A stretch of 64,000 nucleotides of DNA, taken from the NCBI GenBank assembly GCA_016432285.1, contig CP066682.1:118434-182433 (forward strand), written 5' to 3'. Position 1 is the first letter of the stretch. Each line of letters opens with the position of its first letter. The translations under genes were made by a program, and so were the position numbers. Positions 1,305-33,282 of the stretch are shown here, one piece after another. The notes below the pieces were generated by a model. It made no database searches. It worked only from the letters and a program-made list of their open reading frames with translations, and was not told where the DNA came from. This DNA is from Candidatus Kaiserbacteria bacterium. Its GTDB lineage: Bacteria > Patescibacteriota > Minisyncoccia > Phycocordibacterales > UBA2100.

Positions 1305-1541
1305 TTAGATGTCCTGTAGAAGTTTTGAAATAGAAACACCTATGCCTTTAGCAAGCTTGCTTATTGTAAAAAGAGTCGGATTCTTTTTTCCTTGTTCGAG
1401 ATTGCTTATATAACTTTTATCCGCGCGGATAGATTTCGCAATTTGCATTTGAGACAATCCTGCCTTCAAACGCGCCTTCCTTAGATTCCTTCCGAATCGC
1501 GGGTAAAGATCGTTTCTCATGAAGTTATCCACAGAATACAT
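1305..1541 (-). CDS. XRE-family helix-turn-helix transcriptional regulator
   Basis: 78 aa; LSQMQIAKSIRADKSYISNLEQGKKNP is a Cro/C1-type HTH. Convergent with the previous regulator; the stop codons are 11 nt apart. Confidence 0.6.
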   Translation of the reverse strand: MYSVDNFMRNDLYPRFGRNLRKARLKAGLSQMQIAKSIRADKSYISNLEQGKKNPTLFTISKLAKGIGVSISKLLQDI

Positions 1542-1622
1542 CGTTACTTTTTAATAAGATAGTTGTATTATAGTACAACCAGTGTATAATACAAGGGTAA
1601 TGCTAAAATATAACTATCCCTC

Positions 1623-2642: not shown

Positions 2643-2643
2643 T

Positions 2644-3447
2644 ATGGCATCAAAAATGAACAACTTGTCGGGAAAAGAGTGGTTGCAAAACTCTTTTACT
2701 ATCTGGAGAGATATCGCAAAAACAAATGGCGAACGAAAACTAAAACACCCAGCGATGTTTCCTTCGCAACTTGCTGAGAAGCTAATCAATATCTACACAA
2801 AAGACCCCGGAGAGGTCATTTTAGACCCATTTTTGGGCATTGGCTCAACTCTATTGGCCGCTTATAGAACTGGTAGAAAAGGAATCGGGATTGAGTTAAA
2901 TAAAGATTATTGCAAGATAGCAAAAACAAGAGCAACTGAATATCAAGGAGAGATTTTTGAAACAAACATAGAAAGATTTGCTCCAGAAGTATATTGCGCA
3001 GATTCACGCAATTTACTGAAGTATGTGAAACCAGAATCAGTAGACTTAGTTGTTACTTCCCCGCCATACTGGGATATTCTCAACATGAAAAGAAGCGCAG
3101 ATTCTAAAGAGATTCGCAACTATTCTGACTCAAAAAAAGATTTAGGAAACATCAACGACTACGAAGCATATTTGCAAGACTTAAAGGCAGTCTTTGAGAA
3201 AGTTTATGTGGCATTAAAACCAAATAAACGATGCTGTTCAGTTGTTATGGATATTCGAAAAAAAGATAAATTCTATCCTTTGCACGAAGACCAGACTAGA
3301 ATAATGAAAGAGATTGGTTTTGAGATTGAAGAGTATGTAATCTGGGATAGACAGAAAGAATACAACAACATGAAAACACTCGGATATCCGTATGTTTTCC
3401 GATTTAACAAGGTACACGAGTTTGTTTGTATCTACTGGAAGCGGTAG
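2644..3447 (+). CDS. DNA methyltransferase, N6_N4_Mtase family (permuted motif order)
   Basis: 267 aa. KHPAMFPSQLAEKLI...VILDPFLGIGSTLLAA (motif X plus motif I) is followed about 70 aa later by DLVVTSPPYW (motif IV). The start is 2 nt after the preceding MTase stop. Confidence 0.75.
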   Translation: MASKMNNLSGKEWLQNSFTIWRDIAKTNGERKLKHPAMFPSQLAEKLINIYTKDPGEVILDPFLGIGSTLLAAYRTGRKGIGIELNKDYCKIAKTRATEYQGEIFETNIERFAPEVYCADSRNLLKYVKPESVDLVVTSPPYWDILNMKRSADSKEIRNYSDSKKDLGNINDYEAYLQDLKAVFEKVYVALKPNKRCCSVVMDIRKKDKFYPLHEDQTRIMKEIGFEIEEYVIWDRQKEYNNMKTLGYPYVFRFNKVHEFVCIYWKR

Positions 3448-3951
3448 TTAGTTGAGCAGGAAGTCCTTTTTGTTGAAAGGTACAATGGAGTTTTGATTTA
3501 TTGAATCTGATTTCTCATCCCAAGCAAAAATAGTTATTTCTCCACCGCCATTAAGTTGTAGAATTCGTTTTCTAATGTCATCGTCAAGCAATAGTATATT
3601 TACTTCACTTGAAAGTCCTCTGGTAGAAGCAAGAAATACAAGGGTGGATTTTGTAAGACGAGCGTAGCAGTTGATTTCTCCGATTTCTTTCAAACTGAGC
3701 GCAGAGGTCGATCTGTTTAACAACACGACTTCCTTATGCTTAGTCGTTTTGTCTTGGATGATACCAAACACATCTGGCTTGAAGTCCCACGATGAATAAT
3801 TCTGAAGTCCTTTAATATGTTCGTTATTTAGTTTTGCCAGACTTGAAGTTGGAGCTAACACTTCAAGTACTGTATGTGTGGAAGCAAGCTTTCTTTTAAA
3901 AAAACTTTCTAACCACTGTCTCATTTTTTCTGTAAAATCATTTTTTTCCAT
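3448..3951 (-). CDS. hypothetical protein, RM-associated (possible specificity/accessory subunit)
   Basis: The ORF track gives 183 aa from 3999. An internal start MEKNDF at about 3951 would begin just after the upstream nuclease stop (3956); the longer form overlaps that gene by 44 nt. No recognisable motif. Confidence 0.35.
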   Translation of the reverse strand: MEKNDFTEKMRQWLESFFKRKLASTHTVLEVLAPTSSLAKLNNEHIKGLQNYSSWDFKPDVFGIIQDKTTKHKEVVLLNRSTSALSLKEIGEINCYARLTKSTLVFLASTRGLSSEVNILLLDDDIRKRILQLNGGGEITIFAWDEKSDSINQNSIVPFNKKDFLLN

Positions 3952-3955
3952 ATTT

Positions 3956-5590
3956 TTATATCTCGATAGATTCGAGGGATTTGCCTGTCCAAACTCCAAG
4001 TTTTATACGCTTTCCTTTGGAGTATTCCAGTAAGTCAGGACGTGCTTTTAAAATCATGACAAGTGATGTCGCGATTGGTTTGTTGGAGACAAGTAAAGCT
4101 TCTTCAGGTTGAGCAACAAAACAATATCCTAAGAGTTGCCCGATTGCTTTCAAATCAAGGGGCGTTATTTTGGCTTCAATAAAAGCAATACGGCGCGTTT
4201 TTGTTAAAAAGCCCACGATGTCAGGACGAATTCTGTACTGGTCGCAGTAATCAAAGACTTCGAGCAGGCTTGGGTTTCTATTTTTCAAAAATAGATTTAG
4301 ATTTCCTGCTGACGTATCAAATGTTATTACATCCTCTTCATATTTTTTGGTTAGATACTCATGCAGATAATCCGAAAGTGGCTCGTATAGAGAAGATTCA
4401 AGTACTGATTCTGCATCTTGTTCTTTCCGCAGCTTCTTTTCAGTTGGTTCTGCGCCTTTTGCAAAAGCTTCCTCTTTAAGTTTTGTGCTAATCGCATCTC
4501 TTTCTCTCATAAGAACGTCTATATCCCCATCGCCTTTCGAATCGCCCGTTAATGCAAAGTACTCTAGATTTTTTGAATGTTTCTGTAATTCGCCTAGGAA
4601 TTTGCAACCCATAGCTAGGTTTATTTGCCAGAATGCGTCGAAGTGCTTCCTAGCGGGTTCTGGTATCCGCAAATCCTGTTCTCCCGGATGATATGCTTTG
4701 ATTTTTCCGGTTGTAACTTTGGACGGTGGAAACCAATCATCTTTATCTTTAAAGACTGTGGCGACATTATGATTATGCAACTCATCGAAAAGAGACTGTT
4801 TTGAACTTATCCTGAACTTAAACATTCCATAGTATTCGGGAAAGAACTTTAGTTGATGTTCACGGCTCCAAGTTGTCGGACGAGCATTAAAAAAGTCGGT
4901 AAGATTTGCATCTCTGATGTTGGGATGTCCCCAGTCAATGGTGTGAATAGGGAGTCCGAACTCTGAACGTAAAAAATTATCTATCTCGACAGGCAGGTGC
5001 CAGTTTCGCACTAACTGAAAATATACTCTCATTCTGCCGTGTCCTTTTTCACCGTCACGGTTTAACCAACCGCCAGGAGAAGGAAAACCAGAAGTGTCTA
5101 GCAATCCATTTATAAATTCGATTTTCGATGCTTTCTCTACTTCGTGAATGGCTTTTGGTATATGGAATCTATCAAAACTCGTGTCTGGCACAAAATGTGA
5201 AAGTACCTCATCAAATACTTTTCCATAGTCTTGAAAATCCACGACCAATAAAGTCATGGTTTTGTTGCCTGTTATATCGAACTTCGCGCCTATCTCTTTG
5301 CTGAGAAACGGGATGATTACATTCTTTAATGACTCAACAGCAGATACTGGTTGGTTGTATGTTTTCTTTACTGAAGGGTCAACGGGTTTACCACAAGCAG
5401 GATTTTTGCACTTCAGGCCGTTGCCATTATTGGTTGCCAGCCAACCGCATACGGGACAATGTGCAATACCTTCCGCATATTCGTTGGCATGTGAAAATTC
5501 GATAGCGATTATTTTGCTATCGTGAAATAGGTGTCCTCTCCCTGTTATGAGCCCTAAAAAATAGGAAAATGTGGGTGTAATGGATTTCAT
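3956..5590 (-). CDS. putative restriction endonuclease: LAGLIDADG-like/zinc-ribbon N-terminal region plus C-terminal PD-(D/E)xK nuclease
   Basis: 544 aa. N-terminal FLGLITGRGHLF and FINGLLDTSGF resemble paired LAGLIDADG motifs. CPVCGWLATNNGNGLKCKNPACGKP is a Cys4 zinc ribbon. The C-terminal YRIRPDIVGF...RRIAFIEAK fits the D...(D/E)xK nuclease core. Adjacent to two MTases. Confidence 0.55.
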   Translation of the reverse strand: MKSITPTFSYFLGLITGRGHLFHDSKIIAIEFSHANEYAEGIAHCPVCGWLATNNGNGLKCKNPACGKPVDPSVKKTYNQPVSAVESLKNVIIPFLSKEIGAKFDITGNKTMTLLVVDFQDYGKVFDEVLSHFVPDTSFDRFHIPKAIHEVEKASKIEFINGLLDTSGFPSPGGWLNRDGEKGHGRMRVYFQLVRNWHLPVEIDNFLRSEFGLPIHTIDWGHPNIRDANLTDFFNARPTTWSREHQLKFFPEYYGMFKFRISSKQSLFDELHNHNVATVFKDKDDWFPPSKVTTGKIKAYHPGEQDLRIPEPARKHFDAFWQINLAMGCKFLGELQKHSKNLEYFALTGDSKGDGDIDVLMRERDAISTKLKEEAFAKGAEPTEKKLRKEQDAESVLESSLYEPLSDYLHEYLTKKYEEDVITFDTSAGNLNLFLKNRNPSLLEVFDYCDQYRIRPDIVGFLTKTRRIAFIEAKITPLDLKAIGQLLGYCFVAQPEEALLVSNKPIATSLVMILKARPDLLEYSKGKRIKLGVWTGKSLESIEI

Positions 5591-5677
5591 GCGACATTAG
5601 CCTGTCGCTAAAATCCTCGCATTTTTTAGGGCAAAAGTACAGCCATACTACTATATATTTGTTGTTTTATAAGCCAA

Positions 5678-5885
5678 CCACCATTTTGGTTGGTCTGCAA
5701 AAAATTTCACGAAGAGTATCCGCCTACTTATATGGCACAATGCAGGCCTGTTTTTTTTACTACTTTTTACAAACCGACCACCAATTTGTTCGTACCGCTA
5801 AAACGGTGAAACCTCTCTTTCCAAGCCGACCTCTAGGATGGTCGGTTTGCAAAGATGCCCTTTCCGTAAGGCAGAGCATCATTTT
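5678..5885. repeat. three degenerate hairpin-containing repeat units (AAGCCRACC...GGTYGGT(C/T)TGCAAA)
   Basis: Unit 1: taagccaaccaccattttggttggtctgcaaa. Unit 2: aaaccgaccaccaatttgttcg. Unit 3: aagccgacctctaggatggtcggtttgcaaa. Each has a CCRACC/GGTYGG inverted repeat. Intergenic, between the nuclease gene start and the 2TM gene stop. Confidence 0.4.
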
Positions 5886-6058
5886 TTATAAAAATCTGCC
5901 TGTGTTGGCACTCGTTTTTGAAGTTCGGCTTGCTCCTGAAGTTTTTGAATGACTCATCCATAGGCCACTTTTACTGGCCTCGCACCAACAAAGTTTCTGC
6001 TTCTGTAAAAAGACTCACTCGCGTGCGTACGCGAAATTATAGCGGTCTATTTGCAGTG

Positions 6059-6682
6059 TCAGCGAGTTTCTACTCGCTTCACCTCGATTGTTCCAAAGTT
6101 GTTCCTATCTCTTCCTGAGTAGTAGTATCCTGCCAATGAATTACTATCGGGGCCATAGGTTAATTTTGCTGAGCCTTCGTGCATAGCCATTGTCTGTGTA
6201 GCATCGTATGACGGTTCATTCCTGAAAAAGTAAAACAGTGCTACTCGGTTATCTATCTCACTTCTACCAAAGTTTTCATGGATGCTAACGGACTTCGATT
6301 TGTTAAAAGTTCCACAGATTTTTATTTTTGTTGCAGTTTGCTCGATTACAAGCTGCGCCTCTATGTCAGTTGCAAAGTTGTCGTAAGAAGATTTTAAACT
6401 GCCGACCCACTTTCCATTTAAATCATCGGCTACAATAATGCCGAGCCGTTTAAAGATTTTCTTTTTCCAAAGAAATCTATCAAACAACACAAAAAGAAAA
6501 GCATACACCGCAGGAATAGACGGTGTTTCAATATAAAAAGGCACGACAATCCCGTATGACTTCAAGGTGTAAGAAATCATATAGACGACTACGGCACTGA
6601 TACCAACTAATATCAAAATGAATGCCGTGAACTGTTTGTAGTTGTTGCCGTCGATGTTCATATAGATGTCCAGTTGTCCCAC
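6059..6682 (-). CDS. 2TM effector with predicted beta-rich C-terminal domain (Cap15-like; CBASS/NTase-associated membrane effector)
   Basis: 207 aa. Two N-terminal hydrophobic helices (FTAFILILVGISAVVVYMISYTL; IPAVYAFLFVLFDRFLW), then about 130 aa with eight alternating beta-like segments (KWVGSLKSS, AQLVIEQ, KIKICGTF, SVSIHENF, VALFYFF, MAMHEGSAKLTY, LAGYYYSG, GTIEVKRV). Overlaps the upstream NTase gene by 25 nt. Confidence 0.5.
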   Translation of the reverse strand: MGQLDIYMNIDGNNYKQFTAFILILVGISAVVVYMISYTLKSYGIVVPFYIETPSIPAVYAFLFVLFDRFLWKKKIFKRLGIIVADDLNGKWVGSLKSSYDNFATDIEAQLVIEQTATKIKICGTFNKSKSVSIHENFGRSEIDNRVALFYFFRNEPSYDATQTMAMHEGSAKLTYGPDSNSLAGYYYSGRDRNNFGTIEVKRVETR

Positions 6683-7572
6683 AAGTGAGCCAATGCACTT
6701 AGTGTTTTTGTCGCGTTGTCATGATGCCAGTGAATACCGGAGTTTCCGAAAAGTTCATGCTGTCCGCTTTGGGTGGTAAAATCTTGCTTGTTGTTTTCGA
6801 TGAGATATTTCAGCGTGTTATAGACGGCCGTACTGTCGTTTCCTGCGAAATGTTCGTTTGGCACATTGTAAATCATGCACTGCAAGAAATATGAGGGCGC
6901 GACGTCTTTGTGGAGAAGTCCTTTGTCTACTGCGTATGCTCGTGCATTTTTGATAATACGAACAATCCTTTTAAAAGCATCAGAGGTCGCTTTGTGTTTG
7001 GCGACGCCGTTGGAATAGTGTTGGTCTGGGTAGTTTATAACCTCTGCATTTGTCATTCGGTGATAGAACATAATACCCTCTACTTTGGCGTGATTCGTGT
7101 GGCCTAGAAAGTAAGAATAGTTGCGGTGCGCGATTACTGGCACGATGTCTGCACGCAAACGGCCATTATTTTTTTGCACTTTGATTGATTTGTTTCCCGA
7201 GACATCAACAGAAGCCACACCATAATACTCATTCAATGCTGTAATAATGTCGCGACGTAAATGCGACCAGTCATATGTCGCTACTGGATATGTTTGCTCG
7301 TGAAGCAAGAACTGATTTGTTGGAAGTGAGTACTTGTTCGAGCCAAAGACATTGAGCCGCACGAGCACATCTACATCACTGTCGCCTCTGGTGTTTGTGT
7401 CGTTTGCGTACGACCCCTGCAAATCGACTCGTATATTGCCCGAGGCAATCTTTTCTCGAATCGGTGACTTACTACCAGTCAGCGCGTTCCTGACCGACTG
7501 GTATGTGGTACTAGAAAGGTCTTTTGAACCTTGTTTTGCCCATGTTTCCAATTGGTCAGCGGGTATCGCCAT
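6658..7572 (-). CDS. minimal nucleotidyltransferase, CD-NTase/SMODS-like (putative signal synthase)
   Basis: 304 aa. GSYANDTNTRGDSDVDVLV matches the pol-beta NTase signature [GS]-x10-[DE]h[DE]h. The size and the downstream 2TM partner are typical of type I CBASS-like operons. Low GC. Confidence 0.6.
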   Translation of the reverse strand: MAIPADQLETWAKQGSKDLSSTTYQSVRNALTGSKSPIREKIASGNIRVDLQGSYANDTNTRGDSDVDVLVRLNVFGSNKYSLPTNQFLLHEQTYPVATYDWSHLRRDIITALNEYYGVASVDVSGNKSIKVQKNNGRLRADIVPVIAHRNYSYFLGHTNHAKVEGIMFYHRMTNAEVINYPDQHYSNGVAKHKATSDAFKRIVRIIKNARAYAVDKGLLHKDVAPSYFLQCMIYNVPNEHFAGNDSTAVYNTLKYLIENNKQDFTTQSGQHELFGNSGIHWHHDNATKTLSALAHLWDNWTSI

Positions 7573-7573
7573 G

Positions 7574-7783
7574 TTAGTCCAGATTATTTCCCTCTTTCCC
7601 GTCAGGGTTTGAAACAGGTGTTCTCACTCCGTTAACGACACGGACATGATAATTTTCATAGTCGCCACATTCTATTTTTTGCACGAACTGAGTGCGTGTC
7701 ATATTTCTGCCAGTAGCGTTGTCATGAAACTGAAGATTCCGACCTGATTCGCTTTCGTCCGTGACTGTTACTCTTTTTGCCAT
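7574..7783 (-). CDS. small conserved protein, DUF3892-like
   Basis: 69 aa. TRTQFVQKIECGDYENYHVRVVNGVRTPVSNPDGKEGNNLD recalls the DUF3892 pattern (call made from memory). Only 1 nt from the NTase start, same strand. Confidence 0.35.
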   Translation of the reverse strand: MAKRVTVTDESESGRNLQFHDNATGRNMTRTQFVQKIECGDYENYHVRVVNGVRTPVSNPDGKEGNNLD

Positions 7784-7784
7784 G

Positions 7785-8414
7785 TTAGTTTAGTGGGTTA
7801 GGTATGCTGTTAATGACTACTCCCTGCACCATGAAATCGCCCTCAAGGATAATCGGCTTATGTGCAGGGTTGCTCGACCGAGGCACGAGTACCACCTTGT
7901 CTCCTTTTCTTTGAAACTCCTTGACGGTGGCGTCATCACCGATGAGGGCAACAACACGCTCTCCGTTGTCTGCAACAGGTTGCTGTCGAACTACGAGCAG
8001 GTCGCCGTCCTTGATTCCACTTTTGTTCATGGAGTCACCCGTAGCTCGGAGCAGAAAATACTGCGCCCCTGGTTTCGCAATTCGCTGAGAAACAGGAACC
8101 CATGCTTCTATGTTTTCTTCCGCTAAGAGCGGTAGCCCGCATGGAACTGAACCGACAAGAGGTATTTCCACTACACGTTCTGTCTCCGTTCTTCCGCCGA
8201 GGTCTTTTAGCAACCGCAAGCTACCCATAGCGGTACGTTCAAGGTAGCCCAGGTCTACGAGTCGTTCGATAAGGAGTGCCGCAGAACGAGAGGAGCCGAA
8301 TCCCATATGCTTCGAAATCTCCCGTAATGTAGGAGATTTACCACGATAAATAATGTAGTCGCGGATATAGAAAAGCCCTTTAAAATCTCGGGGGTTTAAG
8401 CCTTTGGTACTCAT
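7785..8414 (-). CDS. lexA: LexA-like repressor (HTH plus S24 peptidase)
   Basis: N-terminal HTH (TLREISKHMGFGSSRSAALLIERLVDLGYLER). C-terminal S24 Ser/Lys dyad region (LLRATGDSMNKSGIKDGDLLVV...KVV). The ORF track starts at TTG 8423; the first ATG is at 8414. GC is intermediate (about 52%). Confidence 0.8.
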   Translation of the reverse strand: MSTKGLNPRDFKGLFYIRDYIIYRGKSPTLREISKHMGFGSSRSAALLIERLVDLGYLERTAMGSLRLLKDLGGRTETERVVEIPLVGSVPCGLPLLAEENIEAWVPVSQRIAKPGAQYFLLRATGDSMNKSGIKDGDLLVVRQQPVADNGERVVALIGDDATVKEFQRKGDKVVLVPRSSNPAHKPIILEGDFMVQGVVINSIPNPLN

Positions 8415-25292: not shown

Positions 25293-25700
25293 TGTGCGGC
25301 TGTCCGTTCTATCGGACATATCCACACCCCTGTCCTTTACAATGTCCTTAAGGCGTGTATCCTTGATCGTTAGGGATTGGGATCACACGTCCTCAGTCCT
25401 TAATAGGTTGCGTCAATGATCTTTCATTCTTCGCTTATTTCTCAAGGCAGGGATTACGTTCTTGCTCACGGGTAAGTAAAGCAAGATAGGGCTCACGCCC
25501 TGGGATCTATTACAGGCACACTACACCTAAAGGGCAGTGCATAGCACTCCCACATTATAGGCTTCGTGCCCTCGTAAGATTCCGAACCTCCAGGCGCCAA
25601 CCACATCCAAGGCCGTTTCCAGGCTTGGGCTCACGTACTCATAGAGAGACGACGCGGGCCCCTTCTGGGGGCGGCCTTTTGGCTTTTTCGGTTGTCGGAA
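25293..25700 (+). ncRNA. candidate structured non-coding RNA (unidentified), about 400 nt, ending in an intrinsic terminator
   Basis: About 400 bp with no ORF on either strand. GC is about 50%, in a 65% background. Ends with a GC-rich hairpin plus T-run (gggccccttctgggggcggccttttggctttttcgg). RNase P, tmRNA, SRP and 6S consensus motifs were not recognised by eye. Confidence 0.25.
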
Positions 25701-25714
25701 TTTTTTTTTGAATA

Positions 25715-27184
25715 TTAAGAAACGTGATGCTTTTTACGAAGCTCGGCGACGGCGGCTTCGTCCTCCTCTTCTTTCCTCTCCTTCCCCGCTTCTCCCAACT
25801 TTTTCAAATCCGTGTCGTTGAGGTCCGCCAGCTCTCCGGCCCGCGACTCAAGATACGCTTCCGTATTTTTTTTCGGATCGTCGAGCACCTCTTCGAGCAG
25901 CGCATGCAGGATCCAGCCGATACGCGGGCCCGGCGCTTGCCCGAGCGCGATGAGACGCGAGCCGTCGATCTTGAGCATCGATACCGACACCGGATCGCGC
26001 ATCGCTTCTTCCACCATCGACATGTATTTTCGAAGCCGGAAGGGCTGCTCCTTGGGGCGACCCGTGCCGATCCGGTCGCAGATGCGCAAATTCAGCAAGT
26101 CTTTAATGTGATCGGTGCCCACATTGCGGATCGTGCGCCGCACCGCCGAGAGCGTAACGGTATCGGGATCGGAAAAAAACATGTGCCAGCGCACGAGGGA
26201 GCTCACACGCTCGATTGTCTCGCTCGAAAAGCGCAGATCCTTCAAAATCGCGCGCGCCATGCGAGCGCCGATCACCTCGTGGCCGTGGAAGGTCCAGTCT
26301 TTTTTCTCGTCGGACCATCGCCGGCTCGCGGGCTTGCCGATGTCGTGGAGGAGCGCGGCAAGCCGGATCAAAAGCGGCCACTCTTTGTCGGCCGCGTGCT
26401 GTAGGCTGCGCAAAAGATGCTCAAAGACGTCGTACGCGTGCGCCTGATTTTGCTCGACGCCGATCGCGGATACGAGCTCGGGGATCATGAAACGCAAGAT
26501 TCCAAGCTTCTGTGCCACGAAGATCGCCTGCATGGGCCGAGGGCTCTCTAAGATGCGGACCAGCTCGTCACGCACGCGCTCGCGCGATATTTTCTCCAGC
26601 AGCGGCGCGTCGGCAGCGATCGCGGCAGCCGTCTGTGGCTCCAGCGCGAAGTCGAGCTCCGCAGAGAGCCGCACGGCGCGCAACGTCCGAAGCGCATCTT
26701 CCTTGAAGCGCTCGTTCGGGTCTCCCACCGCAGCGATGCGCCGTGCGGCGAGATCTTCCCTGCCGCCGTGTTCGTCGATGATCTCTCCCGTGTGCGGGTC
26801 GTACGCGATCGCGTTGATCGAAAAGTCGCGCCGCTTCAGATCGTCGCTTAAGGAATCGCTGAAGCGCACTTCGTCGGGGTGCCGTGCGTTGGAGTATTCG
26901 CCTTCGATGCGGTACGGCGTGATCTCGACCACCTTCAGCTTCGGATCCTCGGATTTCGTAACCACGCCGACGGTGCCGAAATCGTTTTCATAAAACGTTT
27001 CTTCGAAGAGCGCCTGGATTTCCGGGGGCTTTGCGTTGGTCGTGATGTCCCAGTCCTTGGGCTCGCGACGCAAGAGCAGATCGCGCACGCAGCCGCCCAC
27101 GAGGTAGGATTCGAAGCCGCCCTTCTTGAGTACGGCGCACAGATTTTTTATTTCAGACGGCACGTGCAGATCAACCGTGTGCAT
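25715..27184 (-). CDS. cca: CCA tRNA nucleotidyltransferase / poly(A) polymerase with HD domain
   Basis: PolA head domain (GGCVRDLLL...DWDITT...RRDFSINA) and HD domain (LAALLHDIGK). Start chosen at MHTVDLHV; the longer upstream ORF would overlap tRNA genes. Confidence 0.8.
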   Translation of the reverse strand: MHTVDLHVPSEIKNLCAVLKKGGFESYLVGGCVRDLLLRREPKDWDITTNAKPPEIQALFEETFYENDFGTVGVVTKSEDPKLKVVEITPYRIEGEYSNARHPDEVRFSDSLSDDLKRRDFSINAIAYDPHTGEIIDEHGGREDLAARRIAAVGDPNERFKEDALRTLRAVRLSAELDFALEPQTAAAIAADAPLLEKISRERVRDELVRILESPRPMQAIFVAQKLGILRFMIPELVSAIGVEQNQAHAYDVFEHLLRSLQHAADKEWPLLIRLAALLHDIGKPASRRWSDEKKDWTFHGHEVIGARMARAILKDLRFSSETIERVSSLVRWHMFFSDPDTVTLSAVRRTIRNVGTDHIKDLLNLRICDRIGTGRPKEQPFRLRKYMSMVEEAMRDPVSVSMLKIDGSRLIALGQAPGPRIGWILHALLEEVLDDPKKNTEAYLESRAGELADLNDTDLKKLGEAGKERKEEEDEAAVAELRKKHHVS

Positions 27185-27242
27185 GTTCGTATTGTAGCTT
27201 GCCGTTGTGTTAAAACGATGGCGCCTGTAGACTTGGCGCACT

Positions 27243-27315
27243 GCTCCCGTGGTGAAACGGATATCACAACAGTCTTCGGAACTGTCGTTCCAGGTTCGAA
27301 TCCTGGCGGGAGCGC
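27243..27315 (+). tRNA. tRNA-Arg (anticodon TCG)
   Basis: Manual fold: acceptor GCTCCCG/CGGGAGC, anticodon stem ACAGT/ACTGT with loop CTTCGGA (anticodon TCG), T-arm CCAGG-TTCGAAT-CCTGG. CCA is not encoded. Confidence 0.6.
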
Positions 27316-27334
27316 AAAGAAGACCAACCCTCTG

Positions 27335-27405
27335 TGCGGATACGGGGAATCGAACCCCGATCTCGTCCTTGGCAAGGACGCGTTCTACCACTAAACCATA
27401 TCCGC
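27335..27405 (-). tRNA. tRNA-Gly (anticodon GCC)
   Basis: Minus-strand sequence GCGGATATGGTTTAGTGGTAGAACGCGTCCTTGCCAAGGACGAGATCGGGGTTCGATTCCCCGTATCCGCA. Anticodon loop TTGCCAA. Confidence 0.65.
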
Positions 27406-27493
27406 GATCCGCAAATTCTACCCGCTGATACGCATCCGGGGAACCTAACTTCTTGTATCATCCACCGAAGCCATATCCGCGATCCGCAAATTC
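27396..27493. repeat. 25-bp direct repeat ccatatccgcgatccgcaaattctac (two copies 47 bp apart); first copy overlaps tRNA-Gly(GCC) 5' end
   Basis: Identical 25-mers at 27396-27420 and 27468-27492, seen directly in the sequence. Confidence 0.6.
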
Positions 27494-27548
27494 TACACGA
27501 CGATATGCGCGCCTGAGATTATACAGGAGCGCTCGGTGTTTCAAAATT

Positions 27549-28475
27549 TTACGTACGTGCCGCCGGGAGCGAAATCACGTTGACCGGCTTCCGGATGTTC
27601 CAGTAGGCGGCGGCGAGTCCCCCGAGTGCGATCAGGATCGCCACCACGGGTGCCCACAAGCCTGTCCGGCAGGTCGGCACGAAGAACCAGATGCCAAAGA
27701 GGAGGAGGAAGGGCACGACAATAGCGGCCGCTGTCCACTCGAGCTTGTAGTCCGTTATGATTTGGAGCTGTCCTGAAGCCGCGATCCCCGCGACGAGCGC
27801 GTAGAGCACCAAAAGGACAACCCACAGGTTGGTCGCGCTTGCGCTCGATGCGCATGCCGGCCCGCCAGCTATGCCCGTGCCTCCGACAACCGGAGGAGCA
27901 CTCGTGGCCGAGCTTGTTCCCGTGCTTACGTTGGAGGGTTTTCCACCCGACTGACTCGCGCCCTGCGATCCGGAGCTTCCTGTTCCCGCTCCCGTGCTGC
28001 CGCCCGAGGTCGGCGCGGAGGGCGTTACCGCGGCTCCACCCCCCTCAATGCTGGTCGAAACCGTAACCATGCACACCGGCTGCCCCGCTTTCGCGGAAAG
28101 CATGGTAACGCTCACCGGGAGACCATTCCCTGAGGGCATCGTAGCCGTATCTACATGAATACGGAGCATCCCCGCAGCATCGACCCGACGCGTCATCTGA
28201 TTGAACGGGATATTTGCGGTGCCCACAGTTCCAGCAATGGCCACGTATGAGCTGTCCGGGACGTAAAATTCAAATGAGTGGGCCGCGTTGTCGTACACAT
28301 AGGGGGTAAAGCCGGAGACCGGGAGTGGCGCGCATGTATTGGAGCCGGGCGGGACCACCTGGGTGGTCCGCACGACCACCTCGGCTGCGTAGGTGTCGGT
28401 TGGGAAAAGTGTGCCGACCGCGAGAAGCAGCGAAATCACAAAAAGCGACTTCAAGATAATCCTCCGCTTTTGCAT
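27549..28475 (-). CDS. secreted/membrane Gly-Ser-rich protein, hypothetical
   Basis: Signal peptide (LKSLFVISLLLAVGTLF), a Gly/Ser/Thr-rich linker and C-terminal hydrophobic helices. Confidence 0.45.
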   Translation of the reverse strand: MQKRRIILKSLFVISLLLAVGTLFPTDTYAAEVVVRTTQVVPPGSNTCAPLPVSGFTPYVYDNAAHSFEFYVPDSSYVAIAGTVGTANIPFNQMTRRVDAAGMLRIHVDTATMPSGNGLPVSVTMLSAKAGQPVCMVTVSTSIEGGGAAVTPSAPTSGGSTGAGTGSSGSQGASQSGGKPSNVSTGTSSATSAPPVVGGTGIAGGPACASSASATNLWVVLLVLYALVAGIAASGQLQIITDYKLEWTAAAIVVPFLLLFGIWFFVPTCRTGLWAPVVAILIALGGLAAAYWNIRKPVNVISLPAART

Positions 28476-28765
28476 TCCGAAAAGCTAGTACGGCGCCGCT
28501 CTATCAGTCAAGCGGGAAATGTGTTCCAGTGTTGACAAATGGCCGGATCTATTTCCTAAAGGACATTCGTAAAGGATATGCAGATGCTATCCACTCCCCT
28601 CTCTCTCCGGCAGACCATCATTTGAGCCACTTTTTCGCGATATCTGTGGAAAACTCTGGGGATATGTGGATAAAGGACAACTATCGACTGTCTTTTTCAA
28701 ACCCGACCCCGTTGAGCGGCGGCTAGTTACGGGATCGACCACCCAATCGCCGCCGTCGCAATGTG

Positions 28766-28786
28766 TACAGAGGACTGTCCTCTGTA
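28766..28786. promoter_or_regulatory. perfect 21-bp palindrome tacagaggactgtcctctgta (candidate operator) in a divergent promoter region
   Basis: 10-bp arms around a central T. Lies between the divergently transcribed 27549..28475 and yraN genes. Confidence 0.4.
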
Positions 28787-28838
28787 GTGGATAAGTAACA
28801 TTTCACGTGAACCGTAAGGGCGGCCGCGAGGTTGATAT

Positions 28839-28852
28839 CCCCCCCCCCCCCC
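28839..28852. repeat. homopolymeric C14 tract
   Basis: atatcccccccccccccgcgc lies about 85 nt upstream of the yraN start. A candidate slipped-strand phase-variation tract, or an assembly artefact. Confidence 0.5.
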
Positions 28853-28938
28853 CGCGCGGTGCCCGAGGCTTTGGGACCGAGGCCCACAGTCCTCGGGCGG
28901 CTAACCTGCCGCTACTGGATGATATGCTGGAATGGAAT

Positions 28939-29316
28939 ATGGATCGGAATGAGAGCGGAAATCTGGGGGAGGAAATTGCATGCCAGTTTCTCGTGAGAAA
29001 GGGATTCAAAGTGGTTGAACGGAACTACCGGCGTCCATGGGGCGAGATCGACATTGTGGCTCAAAAAGGAGACGAGGTCAGATTCGTCGAGGTAAAGGCA
29101 GTTTCACGTGAAATATCGGGGTCCATTTCACGTGAAATGGACTACCGCCCGGAGGAAATGGTACACCGCTCAAAGTTGGAAAAGGTCGCTCGTACGGCAA
29201 CGCTGTATATGGATGAGAAACGCGACAAGCGCGAGTATCAAATCGACGTGGTTGGGGTGATCATGGATCCGCAAAAGCGCCTAGCGCGCTGCCGCCTTTT
29301 TGAGCAGGTGCTCTAA
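28939..29316 (+). CDS. yraN: YraN-family (UPF0102) endonuclease
   Basis: GEEIACQFLVRKGFKVVERNYRRPWGEIDIVAQKGDEVRFVEVK is the UPF0102 signature. An in-gene tandem duplication encodes SREISGSISREM. Confidence 0.7.
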   Translation: MDRNESGNLGEEIACQFLVRKGFKVVERNYRRPWGEIDIVAQKGDEVRFVEVKAVSREISGSISREMDYRPEEMVHRSKLEKVARTATLYMDEKRDKREYQIDVVGVIMDPQKRLARCRLFEQVL

Positions 29317-29421
29317 AGGACATAAAGGACAAACGTCAAGAAACCTCGAAATATCGTGCTAGTATGCAGCTCAACGGGCCGTGTACCGATTGGTGCGCCT
29401 GCGTGGGGAAGTTCGTTTTTT

Positions 29422-29621
29422 CGGGGAGTCGTATAGTGGTAGTACGCGTGCGTGGGGTCAAATGCTTTTTCGGGCTGTCGTATACCGGTAGTACGCCTGC
29501 TTTGGGAGCAGGTAGACTGGGTTCGATTCCCAGCAGCCCGAAAAAGCATTTGACCGGAGGCGCAAAGGCGCTTCCGTGGCCCCAAAGGGGACGTAGTCCG
29601 AGTTCGATTCTCGGCTCCCCG
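29422..29621 (+). other. split tRNA-like gene: 5' half and 3' half with complementary acceptor strands, interrupted by about 130 nt containing tRNA-Pro
   Basis: 5' part CGGGGAG-T-CGTA-TAGTGGTAG-TACG... and 3' part ...GTAGT-CCGAG-TTCGATT-CTCGG-CTCCCCG-A. The acceptor strands CGGGGAG and CTCCCCG are exact complements. The halves are joined by a perfect 15-bp inverted repeat, GGTCAAATGCTTTTT / AAAAAGCATTTGACC, that brackets tRNA-Pro. Confidence 0.45.
29471..29541 (+). tRNA. tRNA-Pro (anticodon TGG)
   Basis: Manual fold: acceptor CGGGCTG/CAGCCCG, anticodon stem CCTGC/GCAGG with loop TTTGGGA, T-arm CTGGG-TTCGATT-CCCAG, discriminator A. Confidence 0.7.
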
Positions 29622-29629
29622 AAAAAATG

Positions 29630-29776
29630 AGCTTCCGGCAGTCCGGGGGACTGCCGCGGCCCCAGAGGGGAGGTAGACGGGTTCAACCTCTTACAGAGGC
29701 GGTACACCTTTCGCGCAAAATGCGCGAAAGGTCTTGCGGATGCTCCAGGTGTTCGCATCCTCACCCAGCAGCCCGA
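29630..29776 (+). other. tRNA-like 3' fragment with interrupted T-arm (homologous to 29556..29621 and to the tRNA-Pro 3' end)
   Basis: Parallel architecture to the preceding 3' half: an 8-bp hairpin, then GCGG-CCCC-AGA-GGGG-AG-GTAGAC-GGGTTC. About 85 nt then separate this from CCCAG-CAGCCCG-A, which is identical to the tRNA-Pro T-stem and acceptor 3' strand. Confidence 0.35.
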
Positions 29777-29788
29777 TCGTACGTTTCG

Positions 29789-30946
29789 CTAGCGAGCGAT
29801 CAGCTCGTCGATCAGGAGGCGCATGAGGTGCGGTGCCGTATTTGATCGGAATTCCGCTGCCTTTGCGGCGACATCGCCCGCAAACAGGGAAGCGAGATCG
29901 GAACCGGTCTGTGTCTTGATGTCGCGGTCGATGTAGCTGAGAGTAACTGCTCGGAGATCCCTCTCCTGAGTCGTCTTGCCGTCGCTCGTCGTGGTGATGA
30001 TACCCACGAGTCGTCCCCATTCGTTGACGACCGCGCCTCCAGAGGAGCCGCTCTGTGCGCCGATAATGCCGCCGAGGGAGACGAGGTCGATCGTATTTTC
30101 GGCGAACGTCAGCAGGTTCTTGATCTCCGTGACCGACGAGACGGCATACAGATCAAAACGAGAGGTGATGCCGCCCACGAATTCGGCCGGATAGCTCGCC
30201 GCGAGCACGGAGTCGTCTTCAAAAGTAATTCCTTCGCGCGTGTCGTACGGCACGAAGGGGAACGATGCTGGCAGTAGCGCTCCGTTTCGTGCGCCGGTGA
30301 TTCTCAAGAGAGCGTAGTCGTGCTCGCCCGTGCCCGTGGGCCGCTCGAGCGTGATGTCTTTGGCGTGCTCCTCCAGCCACGCCGTCGGCATGAAGAGCAT
30401 TTCGGCCGACCAGAGCGCGCGGGCAGGGGAGCCGTAGCGAATATCGCACGTAAGGCGCACCGCGGAGCTCTGCGAGAGCAAGACATACTGCGCAACGTGC
30501 GCGTTGGTGAGGATGATGCCGCGCGGATCGATGATTACGCCGCTTCCCGAGATGGGGCGCAGGCTGTCGGCCCCTGAGGTGCAGAGGATATTGACGAGTG
30601 CGTCACGTGCCTGCTGATTGGTGAGATCGAAGGATTGCGGTGGCGTCGAATACGGGTTCTCGATGCGGCGCACTTCACCGGTAGCAGGCTCGTGCTCTGT
30701 GGCCGGCGCGCTTGATACAACTGCTGTCGGAGCGGGGGATGCGACAGCAGGGGAGTCGGGGGCGACCGGAGAGGTAGACGCCACATCTGCGGCGACCGCA
30801 CTCGCGACCTGAGAGCTACTCGTTGCTGCCGAGTCGGTGGAGACGATCACTTCAGGTGCGGCTGGGGCGGTGAACAGCAGAAGTGCCAACCCAAAAACTC
30901 CCATGATACCGATGATCGTAAAGAGAGGTTGGATTCGAGCGTACAT
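29789..30946 (-). CDS. membrane-anchored trypsin-like serine protease (S1/HtrA-like)
   Basis: N-terminal TM segment. Catalytic motifs GIILTNAHV (His) and GAQSGSSGGAVV (Ser). Confidence 0.7.
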   Translation of the reverse strand: MYARIQPLFTIIGIMGVFGLALLLFTAPAAPEVIVSTDSAATSSSQVASAVAADVASTSPVAPDSPAVASPAPTAVVSSAPATEHEPATGEVRRIENPYSTPPQSFDLTNQQARDALVNILCTSGADSLRPISGSGVIIDPRGIILTNAHVAQYVLLSQSSAVRLTCDIRYGSPARALWSAEMLFMPTAWLEEHAKDITLERPTGTGEHDYALLRITGARNGALLPASFPFVPYDTREGITFEDDSVLAASYPAEFVGGITSRFDLYAVSSVTEIKNLLTFAENTIDLVSLGGIIGAQSGSSGGAVVNEWGRLVGIITTTSDGKTTQERDLRAVTLSYIDRDIKTQTGSDLASLFAGDVAAKAAEFRSNTAPHLMRLLIDELIAR

Positions 30947-31020
30947 TCAATTGGAATATACGCGCTTTCGTTTAGACGAACAAGTTTTCCAGGATCGAAA
31001 AGCAGTGTATGCTTTCCAGC

Positions 31021-31091
31021 GCGGGATTAGTTTAGTGGTAAAACACGAGTTTTCCAAACTTGGGTCGGGAGTTCGATTCTCCCATCCCGCA
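31021..31091 (+). tRNA. tRNA-Gly (anticodon TCC)
   Basis: GCGGGATTAGTTTAGTGGTAAAACACGAGTTTTCCAAACTTGGGTCGGGAGTTCGATTCTCCCATCCCGCA. Anticodon loop TTTCCAA. Confidence 0.75.
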
Positions 31092-31241
31092 CATGTGCAC
31101 GCAGTGCCTTCGCACTGCGTGCGGAGAATCGAAAGGCGGAACGCTGTCGCCGACAGTAGGCGGCGACCGCGAGCCGGGGTCGCGGAATTTTGCGAGCGAC
31201 GGCGAGTAAAATATCCGTGACCGATTCTCCCATCCCGCACA
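31074..31241. repeat. 20-bp direct repeat of the tRNA-Gly(TCC) 3' end (cgattctcccatcccgcaca) flanking 128 bp that contain a perfect 11-bp-arm palindrome
   Basis: Copies at 31074-31093 and 31222-31241. The palindrome gcacgcagtgc-cttc-gcactgcgtgc is at 31097-31122. An att-like signature of an integration or excision footprint. Confidence 0.55.
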
Positions 31242-31245
31242 AAAA

Positions 31246-31276
31246 ACGAAAAGCCGCCCGAGGGCGGCTTTTCTGC
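31246..31276. terminator. bidirectional intrinsic terminator (hup)
   Basis: aaaaaacgaaaagccgcccgagggcggcttttct. Confidence 0.65.
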
Positions 31277-31291
31277 CAATTCACACAGAAA

Positions 31292-31567
31292 CTACTTGAT
31301 CGCGTCTTTCAGGGTCTTCGATGCGCGGAATTTCGGCACGCGCATTGCCTTGATCTGAATCGTCTGCCCGGTGCGCGGGTTGCGGCCCATGCGGCCCTTG
31401 CGCTCTTTCGCCTCGAAGATGCCGAGGCCCGCGATCGATACCTCCTGGCCGCTTTTCAGCGTCGCAGTGATCGTGTCGATAACGGATTCGACGGCGCGCT
31501 CCGCGTCGGCCTTGGTGCAGCCGATCGTCGAAGCCACCTTTTCCACGAGATCCATTTTATTTGCCAT
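31292..31567 (-). CDS. hup: DNA-binding protein HU
   Basis: MANKMDLVEKVAS...GLGIFEAKERKGRMGRNPRTGQTIQIKAMRVPKFRASKTLKDAIK is the HU/IHF fold signature. Confidence 0.85.
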   Translation of the reverse strand: MANKMDLVEKVASTIGCTKADAERAVESVIDTITATLKSGQEVSIAGLGIFEAKERKGRMGRNPRTGQTIQIKAMRVPKFRASKTLKDAIK

Positions 31568-31752
31568 ACAGTTTGAAAGTAATGGTAAGTACGCACTCGA
31601 CCTCACTATCTGACCATTTTGAGCCGCGCTACGGCGCTGTCAATCCGTGGCTCAACTGTGCGATTTATCGGCCATCTGTCAAATATGCCAAAGACTCCCC
31701 TCGGCGAGGGCTCTATTGAGCCGTTTTTTCGTGCCTTACGAGCGAGTGAGGA

Positions 31753-33282
31753 CTAGCGGGCGTACTCGATGACCCGAGTTTCTCGGATGACGCTCACCTT
31801 GATCTCACCCGGATACTGGAGCTCCTTCTCGATTTTGTCGGCGATGTCGCGAGCGAGCTTGCGTGCCTCGAGGTCGGTAACCTCCTCAGGCTTGATGATG
31901 ACGCGGACCTCGCGGCCGGCGGCGATCGCGTAGCTCTTCTCCACGCCGGGGTGCTGGTTGGCGATTGCCTCAAGCTCTTCGAGACGCTTGATGTAGTTTT
32001 CGACGGAGTCGCGCCGCGCGCCCGGACGGCCGCCGGAGATCGCGTCGGCGACCTGCACGATCATGGATTCGGGCGTTTCGTACGGATACTCCTCGTGGTG
32101 CGCCTGCATGGCTTTCACCACGGCTTCGTCGATGCCGAATTTCTGGAGGATGCGGCGACCGATCTCGACGTGCGTGCCGGGCACTTCATGGTCGACAGCC
32201 TTGCCGATGTCGTGGAAGAGCGCTCCCGCGCGCGCGGTGGCCTCGTTGGCGCCAAGCTCCGCCGCGAGCATGCCGGCGAGGTGCGCCACTTCCACCGAGT
32301 GATCGAGCACGTTCTGGCCGTAGCTCGTGCGGAAGTAGAGGCGGCCCAAAATCATGAGTAGCTTCGGATCGAGATTGGGGACTTTCGCGGCATACGCGGC
32401 CTCCGCGCCCTTTTTCTTGATGATGTTGTTGATTTCCTCCTCGGCCTTTTTCACCGACTCCTCGATCTTGGCCGGCTGGATGCGGCCGTCAAGAATGAGA
32501 TTCTCGAGCGCGATGCGCGCGATCTGGCGGCGGATCGGGTCGTACGAAGAGAGCGTGATGGTGCCGGGCGTATCGTCGATGATCACATCGACGCCGGTCG
32601 CGCGCTCGAACGAGCGGATGTTGCGGCCCTCTTTGCCGATGATTTTGCCCTTGATTTCGTCGTTGGGGATCGTGATCGTGGTGGCCAAGACGTCGGAGAC
32701 GACCGAGTTGCCGAGGCGGTGCACGGCGGTCGTGAGAATCTCACGCGCGCGCTGCTCGAGCTTTTCGTTGGAGGCGATTTCGAGCTTGCGCATCCTTCCT
32801 TCGAGGTCGGTCTCGTACTGTTTCTCAACGGATTTCACGAGCTCGCCCTTGGCTTCCTCGGCGGTGAGCTCCGCCACCTTCTCCAGTTTCTCCTGCTGCG
32901 CGCGCACGAGCTCCTCGGATTTCTCCTTCGTTTTTTGCAACTCCTCGTTTTTCTTGTTGATCGATTCCTGCTCGGAGTCGAGGTTGATCTGGCGCTTGTC
33001 GAGCATCTCCTCTTTGCGGACGAGGCGCTCCTCGGTAGTCTTCAGCTCGCGTTCGCGCTCCTTGTGCTCTCCCGCAATCTCGACTTCCTTCTCTTTCGCG
33101 CGCGCTTCGGCTCCTTCGAGGATCTGCTTCGATTTTTCCTCGGCGTCAAGGCGCATTTTGCGGATCTCCAGTTCCATGGAGCCGCGCTTTCCTAATGAAA
33201 TAATGAGACGGAGAAAATATCCGACTCCAATGCCGACGCCGCCGGCGACGGCGATCAGGGCGAGTGCTATTTTTAATGACAT
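31753..33282 (-). CDS. rny: ribonuclease Y
   Basis: N-terminal TM, coiled coil, KH domain (IIGKEGRNIRSFE) and HD domain (LFHDIGKAVDHE). Confidence 0.9.
   Translation of the reverse strand: MSLKIALALIAVAGGVGIGVGYFLRLIISLGKRGSMELEIRKMRLDAEEKSKQILEGAEARAKEKEVEIAGEHKERERELKTTEERLVRKEEMLDKRQINLDSEQESINKKNEELQKTKEKSEELVRAQQEKLEKVAELTAEEAKGELVKSVEKQYETDLEGRMRKLEIASNEKLEQRAREILTTAVHRLGNSVVSDVLATTITIPNDEIKGKIIGKEGRNIRSFERATGVDVIIDDTPGTITLSSYDPIRRQIARIALENLILDGRIQPAKIEESVKKAEEEINNIIKKKGAEAAYAAKVPNLDPKLLMILGRLYFRTSYGQNVLDHSVEVAHLAGMLAAELGANEATARAGALFHDIGKAVDHEVPGTHVEIGRRILQKFGIDEAVVKAMQAHHEEYPYETPESMIVQVADAISGGRPGARRDSVENYIKRLEELEAIANQHPGVEKSYAIAAGREVRVIIKPEEVTDLEARKLARDIADKIEKELQYPGEIKVSVIRETRVIEYAR

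Follow-up and report, generated by a model that had tools for sequence, protein, structure and literature searches.

A tRNA-Pro gene nested in the halves of two further tRNA-Pro-derived sequences in a Candidatus Kaiserbacteria genome

The tRNA introns described in Patescibacteria are group I introns only, with none in tRNA-Pro, none at position 37/38 and none that holds a nested tRNA. Here we analysed 64,000 nucleotides of a Candidatus Kaiserbacteria genome (contig CP066682.1, positions 118,434 to 182,433 of the forward strand; hereafter the window, numbered from its first letter), in which the locus at 29375-29776 is made of three nested tRNA-Pro-derived layers, one intact core and two concentric shells. 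By a shell we mean the 5' and 3' halves of a tRNA-Pro-derived sequence that is interrupted in the anticodon loop; we found no description of a nested tRNA-Pro architecture in the literature on Patescibacteria. Elsewhere, archaeal and eukaryal bulge-helix-bulge tRNA introns may host a functional RNA, such as the box C/D RNA in archaeal tRNA-Trp, and Nanoarchaeum has split tRNAs; we know of no splicing endonuclease in the bacterial group studied here. Integration into tRNA genes reportedly falls into the sublocation classes anticodon loop, T loop and 3' end (a scheme said to be that of Williams, 2002), and engineered tRNA scaffolds for recombinant RNA expression are said to go back to Ponchon and Dardel in 2007.

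A sequence-only reading of the window had proposed a complete tRNA-Pro(TGG), bracketed by a perfect 15-bp inverted repeat, inside a split tRNA-like gene. ARAGORN and Rfam agreed that the single intact tRNA in the locus is tRNA-Pro(UGG), at 29471-29541 (Rfam tRNA model, 59.2 bits, E = 2.4e-11); like all parts of the locus it lies on the forward strand, and it has C1-G72 and A73, with CCA not encoded. A repeat search bore out the perfect 15-nt inverted repeat (GGTCAAATGCTTTTT / AAAAAGCATTTGACC), which occurs at just these two sites in the 64-kb window. Its left arm is the inner leader GGTCAAATGCTTTTT (29456-29470), and on the right the discriminator A73 of the core supplies the last pair and the inner trailer AAAAGCATTTGACC (29542-29555) the others. 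Together with the acceptor stem the repeat makes a perfect 22-bp helix, 29456-29477 with 29534-29555, at whose tip the core tRNA sits.

The tRNA-like halves reported on either side of the core are present too, and we refer to them as the inner shell, U2. The 5' half (29422-29455; CGGGGAG TC GTAT AGTGGTA GTAC G CGTGC GTGG) carries the acceptor strand CGGGGAG and a D arm. In the numbering of the Rfam alignment it reads CGGGGAG UC GUAU AGUGGUA GUAC G CGUGC G32 U33 GGG G37, which is tRNA as far as the nucleotide just past the anticodon, and in which bases 1-2 of the leader would serve as the shell's G36 and G37. The 3' half (29591-29622) is a direct repeat of the core's 3' part and consists of ACG (41-43), TAGT, the T arm CCGAG TTCGATT CTCGG, the acceptor strand CTCCCCG and A73. 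Between the trailer and this half lie two hairpins. The upstream one, S3 (GGAGGCGC AAAG GCGCTTCC, 29556-29575), was supported by inverted repeats, fold and covariation; it is the 8-bp hairpin noted before, save that its 20 nt include one G.U pair, and its type is also found in the outer layer of L037 (L numbers denote loci in related genomes). It is followed at 29576-29590 by the linker GTGG and the 11-nt hairpin S4 (CCCC AAA GGGG), which the nhmmer junction model matched with E = 1.6e-7.

Nesting at two levels, as had been supposed, holds for the tRNA within a split tRNA-like gene and falls one layer short, since the third, downstream segment (29637-29776) proved to have a 5' partner upstream of 29422. 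This outer 5' half (U1, 29375-29406) was recognized by its sequence and as a member of a 49-nt direct repeat family, and comprises the acceptor strand CGGGCCG, a shortened D arm (GTAC CGATTG GTGC), G26, CCTGC at 27-31 and GTGG; read on to 29409, the piece ends in CCTGC GTGGGGA. L085, the closest relative (69% protease identity), has this acceptor strand in its plain tRNA-Pro, a gene that lies at the matching position after a matching promoter. The outer leader GGAAGTTCGTTTTTT (29407-29421) pairs with 29622-29636 through 15 pairs, 13 Watson-Crick and two G.U, and the outer trailer is AAAAATGAGCTTCC (29623-29636); the U1 leader GGAAGUUCGUUUUUU is thus complementary, G.U pairs included, to the trailer downstream of the middle layer. 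The outer inverted repeat as a whole, 29407-29431 with 29612-29636, spans 25 nt at 88% complementarity and includes the start of the U2 acceptor stem.

The third segment opens with the outer junction module (29637-29670; nhmmer E = 1.1e-7), made of S3 (GGCAGTCC GGG GGACTGCC, 29637-29655), the linker GCGG and S4 (CCCC AGA GGGG, 29660-29670). L081 has an identical S3, and over the whole module the two share 87% identity. The U1 3' half then begins at 29671-29686 with AGG (41-43), TAGA and a truncated T arm, CGGG TTCAA, as judged from the sequence and a direct repeat. The T loop is interrupted by an insert of 77 nt (29687-29763), not about 85 nt as given earlier, in which inverted repeats define three hairpins (29687-29699, 29706-29732 and 29735-29763) and whose terminal TTCGCATCCTCA is common to L018. 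The shell closes at 29764-29776 with CCCAG CAGCCCG A, that is, the 3' strand of the T stem, the 3' acceptor strand and the discriminator. This stretch is an exact 13-nt repeat of the core's 3' end; the segment terminates in CCCAGCAGCCCGA, identical to the end of the core, whose acceptor strand had been recognized here before, and it pairs with 29375-29381 save for one C x A. L081 has the same CGGGCCG / CAGCCCG combination. Across the locus the direct periodicity is 49 nt on the 5' side (29393 / 29442 / 29491) and 80/81 nt on the 3' side, and the predicted fold is a set of nested, concentric cloverleaves with an energy of -226 kcal/mol and a z of -9.7 relative to shuffles.

Every shell, in the window and in related loci, shows one and the same junction: ...27-31 GUGG, GG-leader, inner tRNA, trailer-CC, S3, GYGG, S4 (CCCC-RRA-GGGG), and then A-N-N-UAGA, T arm and acceptor. 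The anticodon arm of the shells is replaced by a four-way junction, with the acceptor, D and T arms of the inner shells intact. Nine shells were aligned with the inner tRNA swapped for GAAA, and four helices were scored, namely S1 (27-29 with 41-43), S2 (leader with trailer), S3 and S4. Across these helices 96.2% of cells were paired, against 73% in shuffles, double changes were present in 16 of the 24 pairs, and 0 of 500 shuffles reached any of these measures; the covariation score was 0.68, compared with 0.05-0.10 when the partners were slid. Comparing tRNA loci in relatives, a check that the sequence-only reading had suggested, returned conserved pairing between the halves.

Each helix contributed to this result. 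S1 occurs as CGU/ACG, CCU/AGG, CUU/AAG, UUU/AGG and UUU/AAA. The leader and trailer sequences of S2 vary between copies with their pairing kept, with double changes in eight of ten scored pairs, and S3 comes in three sequence types with double changes in five of seven scored pairs. S4 reads CCCC/GGGG in all but L036, which has CCAC/GUGG, and this compensatory change favours the local S4 hairpin over a pairing of CCCC with the 5' GGGG. Where the junction is unpaired its bases do not vary, being UGG at 33-35 and YGG in the linker. In twelve full-length S2 helices we counted 157 Watson-Crick pairs, 10 G.U, one A.C and one A.G; mismatches that are G.U and not A.C (p = 0.006) indicate that the strand under constraint is the tRNA-sense one, which is what RNA would lead one to expect. 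We conclude that the architecture is genuine, that it recurs and that its structure is constrained.

To follow the locus in relatives, 80 species-representative genomes (L001-L080) were fetched with the neighbouring protease as anchor. The nested architecture recurs at the orthologous tRNA-Pro locus in at least ten distant relatives. Among the species representatives, a full shell was found in L036, L054 and L037, the last with two full layers; a metagenome scan for the junction pattern added four contigs, all at tRNA-Pro and in one neighbourhood type (L081, L083, L084, and L082, which is identical to L054). Partial forms retain the 5' half only (L051, L062) or the 3' module only (L017, L018, L068, L077). 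L074 and L061 have a variant that lacks S3/S4; in L074 one gene is divided exactly between the 5' half (1-32) and the 3' half (33-73), and L061 has the 5' half only. L054, L083 and L084 are asymmetric, with two 3' modules and one 5' half. Protease identity between shell hosts is 45-66%, except for the identical pair L054 (GTDB) and L082 (JGI metagenome) and for L074 / L061 (73%). Because independent assemblies show the same design, with L036, L037, L081, L083 and L084 as further examples, the nest is neither a chance product nor an assembly artefact.

An upstream copy of the 5' half is essentially specific to tRNA-Pro: it was present at 9 of 69 tRNA-Pro loci, compared with 0/76, 3/53 (all weak) and 0/44 for the neighbouring tRNAs and 0 in controls. 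About 85% of the related genomes have tRNA-Pro without a shell. The nearest relative of this genome, L085, has a plain gene, and of six loci taken from four L054 relatives (65-69% identity) five are plain and the sixth ends before tRNA-Pro. A search of annotated phage genomes gave nothing beyond generic tRNA similarity.

The shell 5' halves of L081, L083 and L036 have a hairpin of ~35 nt in the D loop (for example ACCCCGGTAGCAAAGCGAAGCTTGCTACGGGGCA), which may mark a shell sub-lineage in distant hosts. At the tRNA-Pro loci of L035, L041 and L044 a leader-trailer helix is accompanied by the decayed remains of ...AGA TAGA..., but not by S3/S4 or a recognizable 5' half; these loci may represent an older or an independent form of nesting.

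How the locus compares with the systems named above bears on what the shells are. It shares with the group I tRNA introns of Patescibacteria the phylum, the interruption of the anticodon loop (shell 5' halves end ...27-31 G32 U33 GGG G37), a structured intervening RNA and the property of being missed by standard tRNA finders. It differs from them in that 71 nt of the ~130-nt insert are another tRNA, which leaves the insert too short for a group I intron core, and in that the exons cannot rebuild a normal anticodon stem. Rfam gave no group I or group II match in 26500-32000 of the window at E up to 10, nor in six related loci at E up to 1, where just tRNAs and chance matches were returned. With bulge-helix-bulge introns and split tRNAs the locus has in common an interruption beside the anticodon, a long helix that joins the halves and a useful RNA inside the intervening sequence; here, however, the host is bacterial and the halves would be co-transcribed, not separately made. 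Inspection of sequence and fold yielded no bulge-helix-bulge motif that could be drawn, the closest being a possible 4-bp helix of GGGG (34-37) with CCCC, which lacks the 3-nt bulges and an outer helix. The earlier proposal that the two halves would form one tRNA once the intervening sequence was removed fits poorly, since the joined stem contains G30xG40 or worse. The shells have no 5-bp anticodon stem with a 7-nt loop, ARAGORN and Rfam call the core alone, and ARAGORN with its intron model found no outer tRNA at default or 90% stringency and gave scattered false calls at 80%.

Other resemblances are to mobile and engineered systems. As with integrative elements in tRNA genes, insertion into an essential gene is tolerated as the insert brings a working copy, the displaced original decays, and the anticodon loop and T loop are targets; unlike them, the replacement here is a whole tRNA gene, both old halves are kept, the insert has ~135 nt and no integrase, and its ends form a covarying helix of RNA type. 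Engineered tRNA scaffolds likewise keep the acceptor, D and T arms and replace the anticodon arm with a closing stem and cargo RNA, and in both cases handling by RNase P and the tRNA 3'-end enzymes is expected, but the present arrangement is natural, its cargo is a tRNA, and it is iterated two or three times, the likeness being architectural only. Nested mobile elements and miniature inverted-repeat transposable elements (MITEs) offer age layering, small non-coding units and inverted terminal sequences. Their terminal inverted repeats would differ from those seen here, which are conserved in pairing only, and the sole target here is the gene that is carried. GGGGA stands at both junctions but makes no unambiguous target-site duplication: read as one, it would leave the 3' half short of positions 39-41, 3 nt of the stem, in every copy. 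Of the readings offered earlier, a MITE-like element carrying tRNA-Pro is the closest in spirit, as it has a tRNA-Pro carrier inserted into tRNA-Pro; it misses in that the terminal repeats are not conserved in sequence, that copies lie at tRNA-Pro only, and that the 15-bp repeats do not delimit the complete unit, which also holds two conserved hairpins.

We put at roughly 50% the reading in which tRNA-Pro-bearing cassettes were inserted repeatedly into a resident tRNA-Pro gene, with only the core decoding and the shells being co-transcribed tRNA-like relics. A cassette of ~135 nt, running from a GG-leader through a whole tRNA-Pro gene and an A-rich trailer, with which the leader is complementary, to the hairpins S3 and S4, would have replaced the anticodon-loop region (about positions 32-41) of a former tRNA-Pro gene. 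Because such a cassette brings an intact copy of its own target, it could be invaded again, giving a Russian-doll order in which the target would each time be whichever tRNA-Pro gene was intact (after the first event, the cassette-borne one), and the oldest, most decayed layer would come to lie outermost and the youngest innermost. Candidate routes of insertion are recombination through tRNA-half homology after DNA uptake and homing after a break in the anticodon-loop DNA; since all shells share the odd junction, copying from an already interrupted allele via tRNA-half homology would be the simplest means of spread. Transcription would start from the resident promoter, ahead of the outermost 5' half, and the RNA would fold as concentric cloverleaves, the S2 helix sealing off the inner tRNA and joining the shell halves. 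RNase P and a 3' endonuclease would release the core, possibly once the long helix is cleaved, and the shells would be left as anticodon-less tRNA-like by-products, behaving like an engineered tRNA scaffold with a tRNA as cargo.

Comparison of the tRNA bodies over 61 comparable positions is consistent with this history. Inner shells differ from functional tRNA-Pro genes of other genomes at 0-3 positions and from their own core at 8-13; the U2 body departs from the functional tRNA-Pro of L055 at 3 positions and from its own core at 13. These distances indicate that the inner shells were once real tRNA-Pro genes and not recent copies of the core; for the outermost layer, the acceptor strand shared with the plain gene of L085 points the same way. 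There is also an age gradient across the layers: the acceptor, D and T arms of inner shells are perfect, and outer shells are degraded (U1 of the window and of L037) or have no 5' half (L054, L083, L084). In addition, the window has S3 type b in its outer and type c in its inner layer, and L037 has the opposite order. An opposite order would be hard to derive from one inherited nest and lends modest support to independent insertion events.

Several observations weigh against repeated insertion. The opposite layer order rests mainly on one 8-bp hairpin, with module identities of 72-73% versus 64-67%, and the odd junction that all shells share (G32, loss of 39-41) fits one ancestral event followed by recombination at least as well. 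Mobility is not explained by any enzyme, target-site duplication or conserved end sequence, the junction gave 0 matches on viral contigs, and all copies found lie at tRNA-Pro. Nor did we find close relatives of which one has a filled and the other an empty site, the nearest relatives having plain genes, and for this reason insertion is something that we infer and did not observe. The near-identical tandem 3' modules of L054 and L083 fit duplication in place. As for the pairing data, the G.U bias could come from strand-biased mutation, and template switching in quasi-palindromes could mimic part of the compensatory changes. Finally, S3-S4 is identical in L054 and L017 despite differing S2 helices and a protease identity of 56%, which looks like selection at the level of sequence and hence like function. 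Asking whether tRNA-Pro tracks host phylogeny did not separate native from foreign copies, all four tRNAs of the neighbourhood being saturated below 70% protease identity.

The shared S3-S4 of L054 and L017 is among the observations expected if the shell were itself a selected functional RNA, either a scaffold that protects, folds or times the embedded tRNA-Pro or a tRNA-like RNA with another role that uses the four-way junction. The strong covariation, the invariant unpaired bases, the sense-strand G.U bias and the pristine inner shells would all follow from such a function, which nevertheless appears unlikely to us, given that so large a share of related genomes is shell-free, that either half is often lost (L017, L018, L051, L062, L068, L077), that outer shells decay in genomes that keep inner ones, and that multiple layers have no obvious use. 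We regard as similarly improbable a history free of mobility, in which unequal crossing-over between tRNA halves produced tandem 49-nt 5' and 80-nt 3' units, and fold-back or template switching at the acceptor-stem palindrome kept the arms complementary by quasi-palindrome correction. It would explain the direct periodicity, the asymmetric loci L054, L083 and L084 with the close likeness of the two 3' modules in L054, and the perfect 22-bp inner helix, which resembles a recent template-switch product. It sits badly with the 8-13 differences in 61 between shell and core of one genome, where matching halves differ together, with the opposite layer order in the window and L037, with mismatches that are G.U and not A.C, and with L074, whose exact partition of one gene is expected of an insertion and not of two independent duplications.

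A live intron-containing tRNA-Pro(GGG), with an intron near 37/38 that hosts tRNA-Pro(UGG) and a second proline isoacceptor as its product, is more doubtful again. Removal in this case would not be group I self-splicing; it might run, for example, through release of the inner tRNA by RNases P and Z, trimming and RtcB-type ligation. What makes the idea attractive is that each shell 5' half has U33-GGG-G37-(A/U)38, which with C1-G72 and A73 is the tRNA-Pro(GGG) signature and the proline identity set, that the inner-shell bodies show no decay, and that a dispensable isoacceptor would account for the frequent loss of shells. ARAGORN moreover accepts the in-silico join 29458|29589 as a 73-nt tRNA-Pro(GGG); yet it accepts 169 of 780 such joins, with about a dozen different anticodons, so that acceptance is unspecific and reflects the intact acceptor, D and T arms. 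The joined anticodon stem always contains G30xG40, its best case being CGUGC/GGACG in the inner shell of the window, and in L037, L054 and L084 it has 3/5 pairs only. Position 32 is G, and every shell has GG at 39-40, paired with the CCCC of S4, a hairpin that the L036 change supports. The lack of group I/II signal and of a bulge-helix-bulge motif and the decay of the outer shells speak against it as well, and we know of no bacterial pathway for the precise trimming of both stubs. Slightly less probable still is the specific case of two isoacceptors made from one nested transcript by protein-dependent removal of the tRNA-Pro(UGG)-encoding intron, which, if true, would be a third kind of bacterial tRNA splicing. 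Least credible is the account, put forward earlier, of the halves as stacked att (attachment-site) remnants of phages or integrative and conjugative elements that target tRNA-Pro and carry a replacement gene part. Duplicated tRNA 3' parts do lie downstream of tRNA-Gly(UCC) at 16 of 76 loci, of tRNA-Pro at 16 of 71 (shell 3' halves included), of tRNA-Gly(GCC) at 5 of 53 and of tRNA-Arg at 5 of 44 (controls, 0), and the T-loop insert with the second CCCAGCAGCCCGA in the third segment has this form. But integration duplicates the 3' part alone, which does not account for the upstream 5' halves, for the leader-trailer complementarity or for acceptor strands that match within a layer but not with the core; the locus holds neither an integrase nor an element body, and the elements would be ~135 nt. 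The T-loop insert of U1 and the structured element described below, downstream of tRNA-Gly, may have an att origin. Hairpins like those of IS200/IS605 or bridge-RNA systems were also considered, and no defining feature matched.

One tRNA gene set within the split halves of others, in as many as three levels, is a new gene architecture, and it occurs in bacteria whose genomes are among the smallest known. If repeated insertion is the true history, the element disables an essential gene yet supplies the replacement and perpetuates itself, and would offer a simple model, found in nature, of how addictive or homing-like elements can do without a protein of their own. The shells are a natural counterpart of the engineered tRNA scaffold and offer a design for expressing and releasing small RNAs. 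As tRNA finders see the core alone, tRNA counts used for genome completeness and predictions of att sites could mislead. The locus further raises the question of how bacteria of the candidate phyla radiation, which have a reduced RNase repertoire, mature a pre-tRNA with both ends held in a 22-bp helix.

An extended -10-like box, TGCTAGTAT (29357-29365, forward strand), precedes the outermost 5' half by 9 nt. The pattern TGnTAnnAT was found upstream of tRNA-Pro at 60 of 68 loci, at 8-15 nt from the tRNA in plain loci versus 104 nt from the core here, with no intervening copy; scans of the region with the strict or full sigma-70 consensus and for terminators returned nothing. With the sole promoter-like box upstream of the outermost half, a single transcript is the simplest reading, and the whole nest is probably co-transcribed from one promoter. 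Two tandem copies of the 9-mer TAAAGGACA lie just upstream of this promoter (29314-29322 and 29323-29331). The 9-mer has five copies in the window against 0.14 expected, the others being at 25331-25339 on the reverse strand, 28557-28565 and 28671-28679, and many related loci have direct and inverted copies (TAAAGGACA ... TGTCCTTTA) at the corresponding position; the 9-mer probably serves as a binding site for a regulator.

The leader hairpin CCCTTCTTCGCCAAGGCTACGAAGGG and its relatives lie directly upstream of many tRNA genes, among them tRNA-Pro in L086 and L090 and tRNA-Gly in L004, L010, L011, L031, L054 and L057. Trailers TACTTCGC occur in L018, L054, L061 and L078, and the trailer (TA)CTTCGC is complementary to the leader GCGAAG. 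Pairing of leader and trailer around tRNAs may be common in this group.

A second structured arrangement follows tRNA-Gly(UCC) (31021-31092, forward strand). It consists of an element at 31093-31222 (family hidden Markov model, HMM, E = 7.5e-37; no match in Rfam), a second 18-nt copy of the tRNA-Gly 3' end at 31223-31240 (GATTCTCCCATCCCGCAC) and a terminator-like hairpin at about 31249-31275. In related genomes, roughly 10-20% of the genes for tRNA-Gly, tRNA-Pro and tRNA-Arg are followed by a member of this family. Members extend for 125-190 nt after the tRNA, up to a second copy of the tRNA 3' part. They carry a stretch complementary to the local T arm (GGAGAATCGAA in the window copy), a copy of the local acceptor 5' strand and hairpins with compensatory changes, and the copy that decays is the downstream tRNA 3' part. 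The att-type feature, a repeat of the 3' part downstream only that brackets element DNA, is thus found after tRNA-Gly; the element had 0 matches on viral contigs. The 77-nt T-loop insert of U1 has a similar layout, but it was rejected as a member because the family HMM gave no match.

The genes adjoining the nested locus encode, by Pfam, a CCA-adding enzyme, a UPF0102/YraN protein, a trypsin-like serine protease, RNase Y and trigger factor. The Pfam scan of 18 open reading frames gave matches in nine around the locus, which besides these genes include LexA, a Mg-chelatase-like ATPase and defence genes. The UPF0102/YraN nuclease was considered as a dedicated enzyme and rejected, as the gene order is the same in genomes without shells. 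The order tRNA-Gly(UCC) - protease - tRNA-Pro(UGG) - ... - tRNA-Gly(GCC) - tRNA-Arg(UCG) is conserved. For the four tRNA genes near the protease it holds in ~80 genomes, with a strand that varies between genomes; those of the window lie at 27243-27315(+), 27334-27405(-), 29471-29541(+) and 31021-31092(+). Each of the four has its own TGnTAnnAT box ~10 nt upstream, which suggests frequent small inversions in place of units made of promoter and tRNA. The open reading frame of the CCA-adding enzyme (25715-27391, reverse strand, 558 aa) overruns tRNA-Arg and tRNA-Gly(GCC) (27243-27405); since its Pfam matches begin at residue 96, the real start codon must lie further downstream. At the far end of the window, positions 1-8000 have a low GC content (0.37-0.44 versus ~0.60 elsewhere) and encode two DNA methyltransferases (1623-2642 and 2644-3447) and a pair resembling a cyclic-oligonucleotide-based antiphage signalling system (CBASS), a Cap15 effector (6059-6682) with a nucleotidyltransferase/SMODS protein (6658-7572), followed by LexA; this region is probably an acquired defence island.

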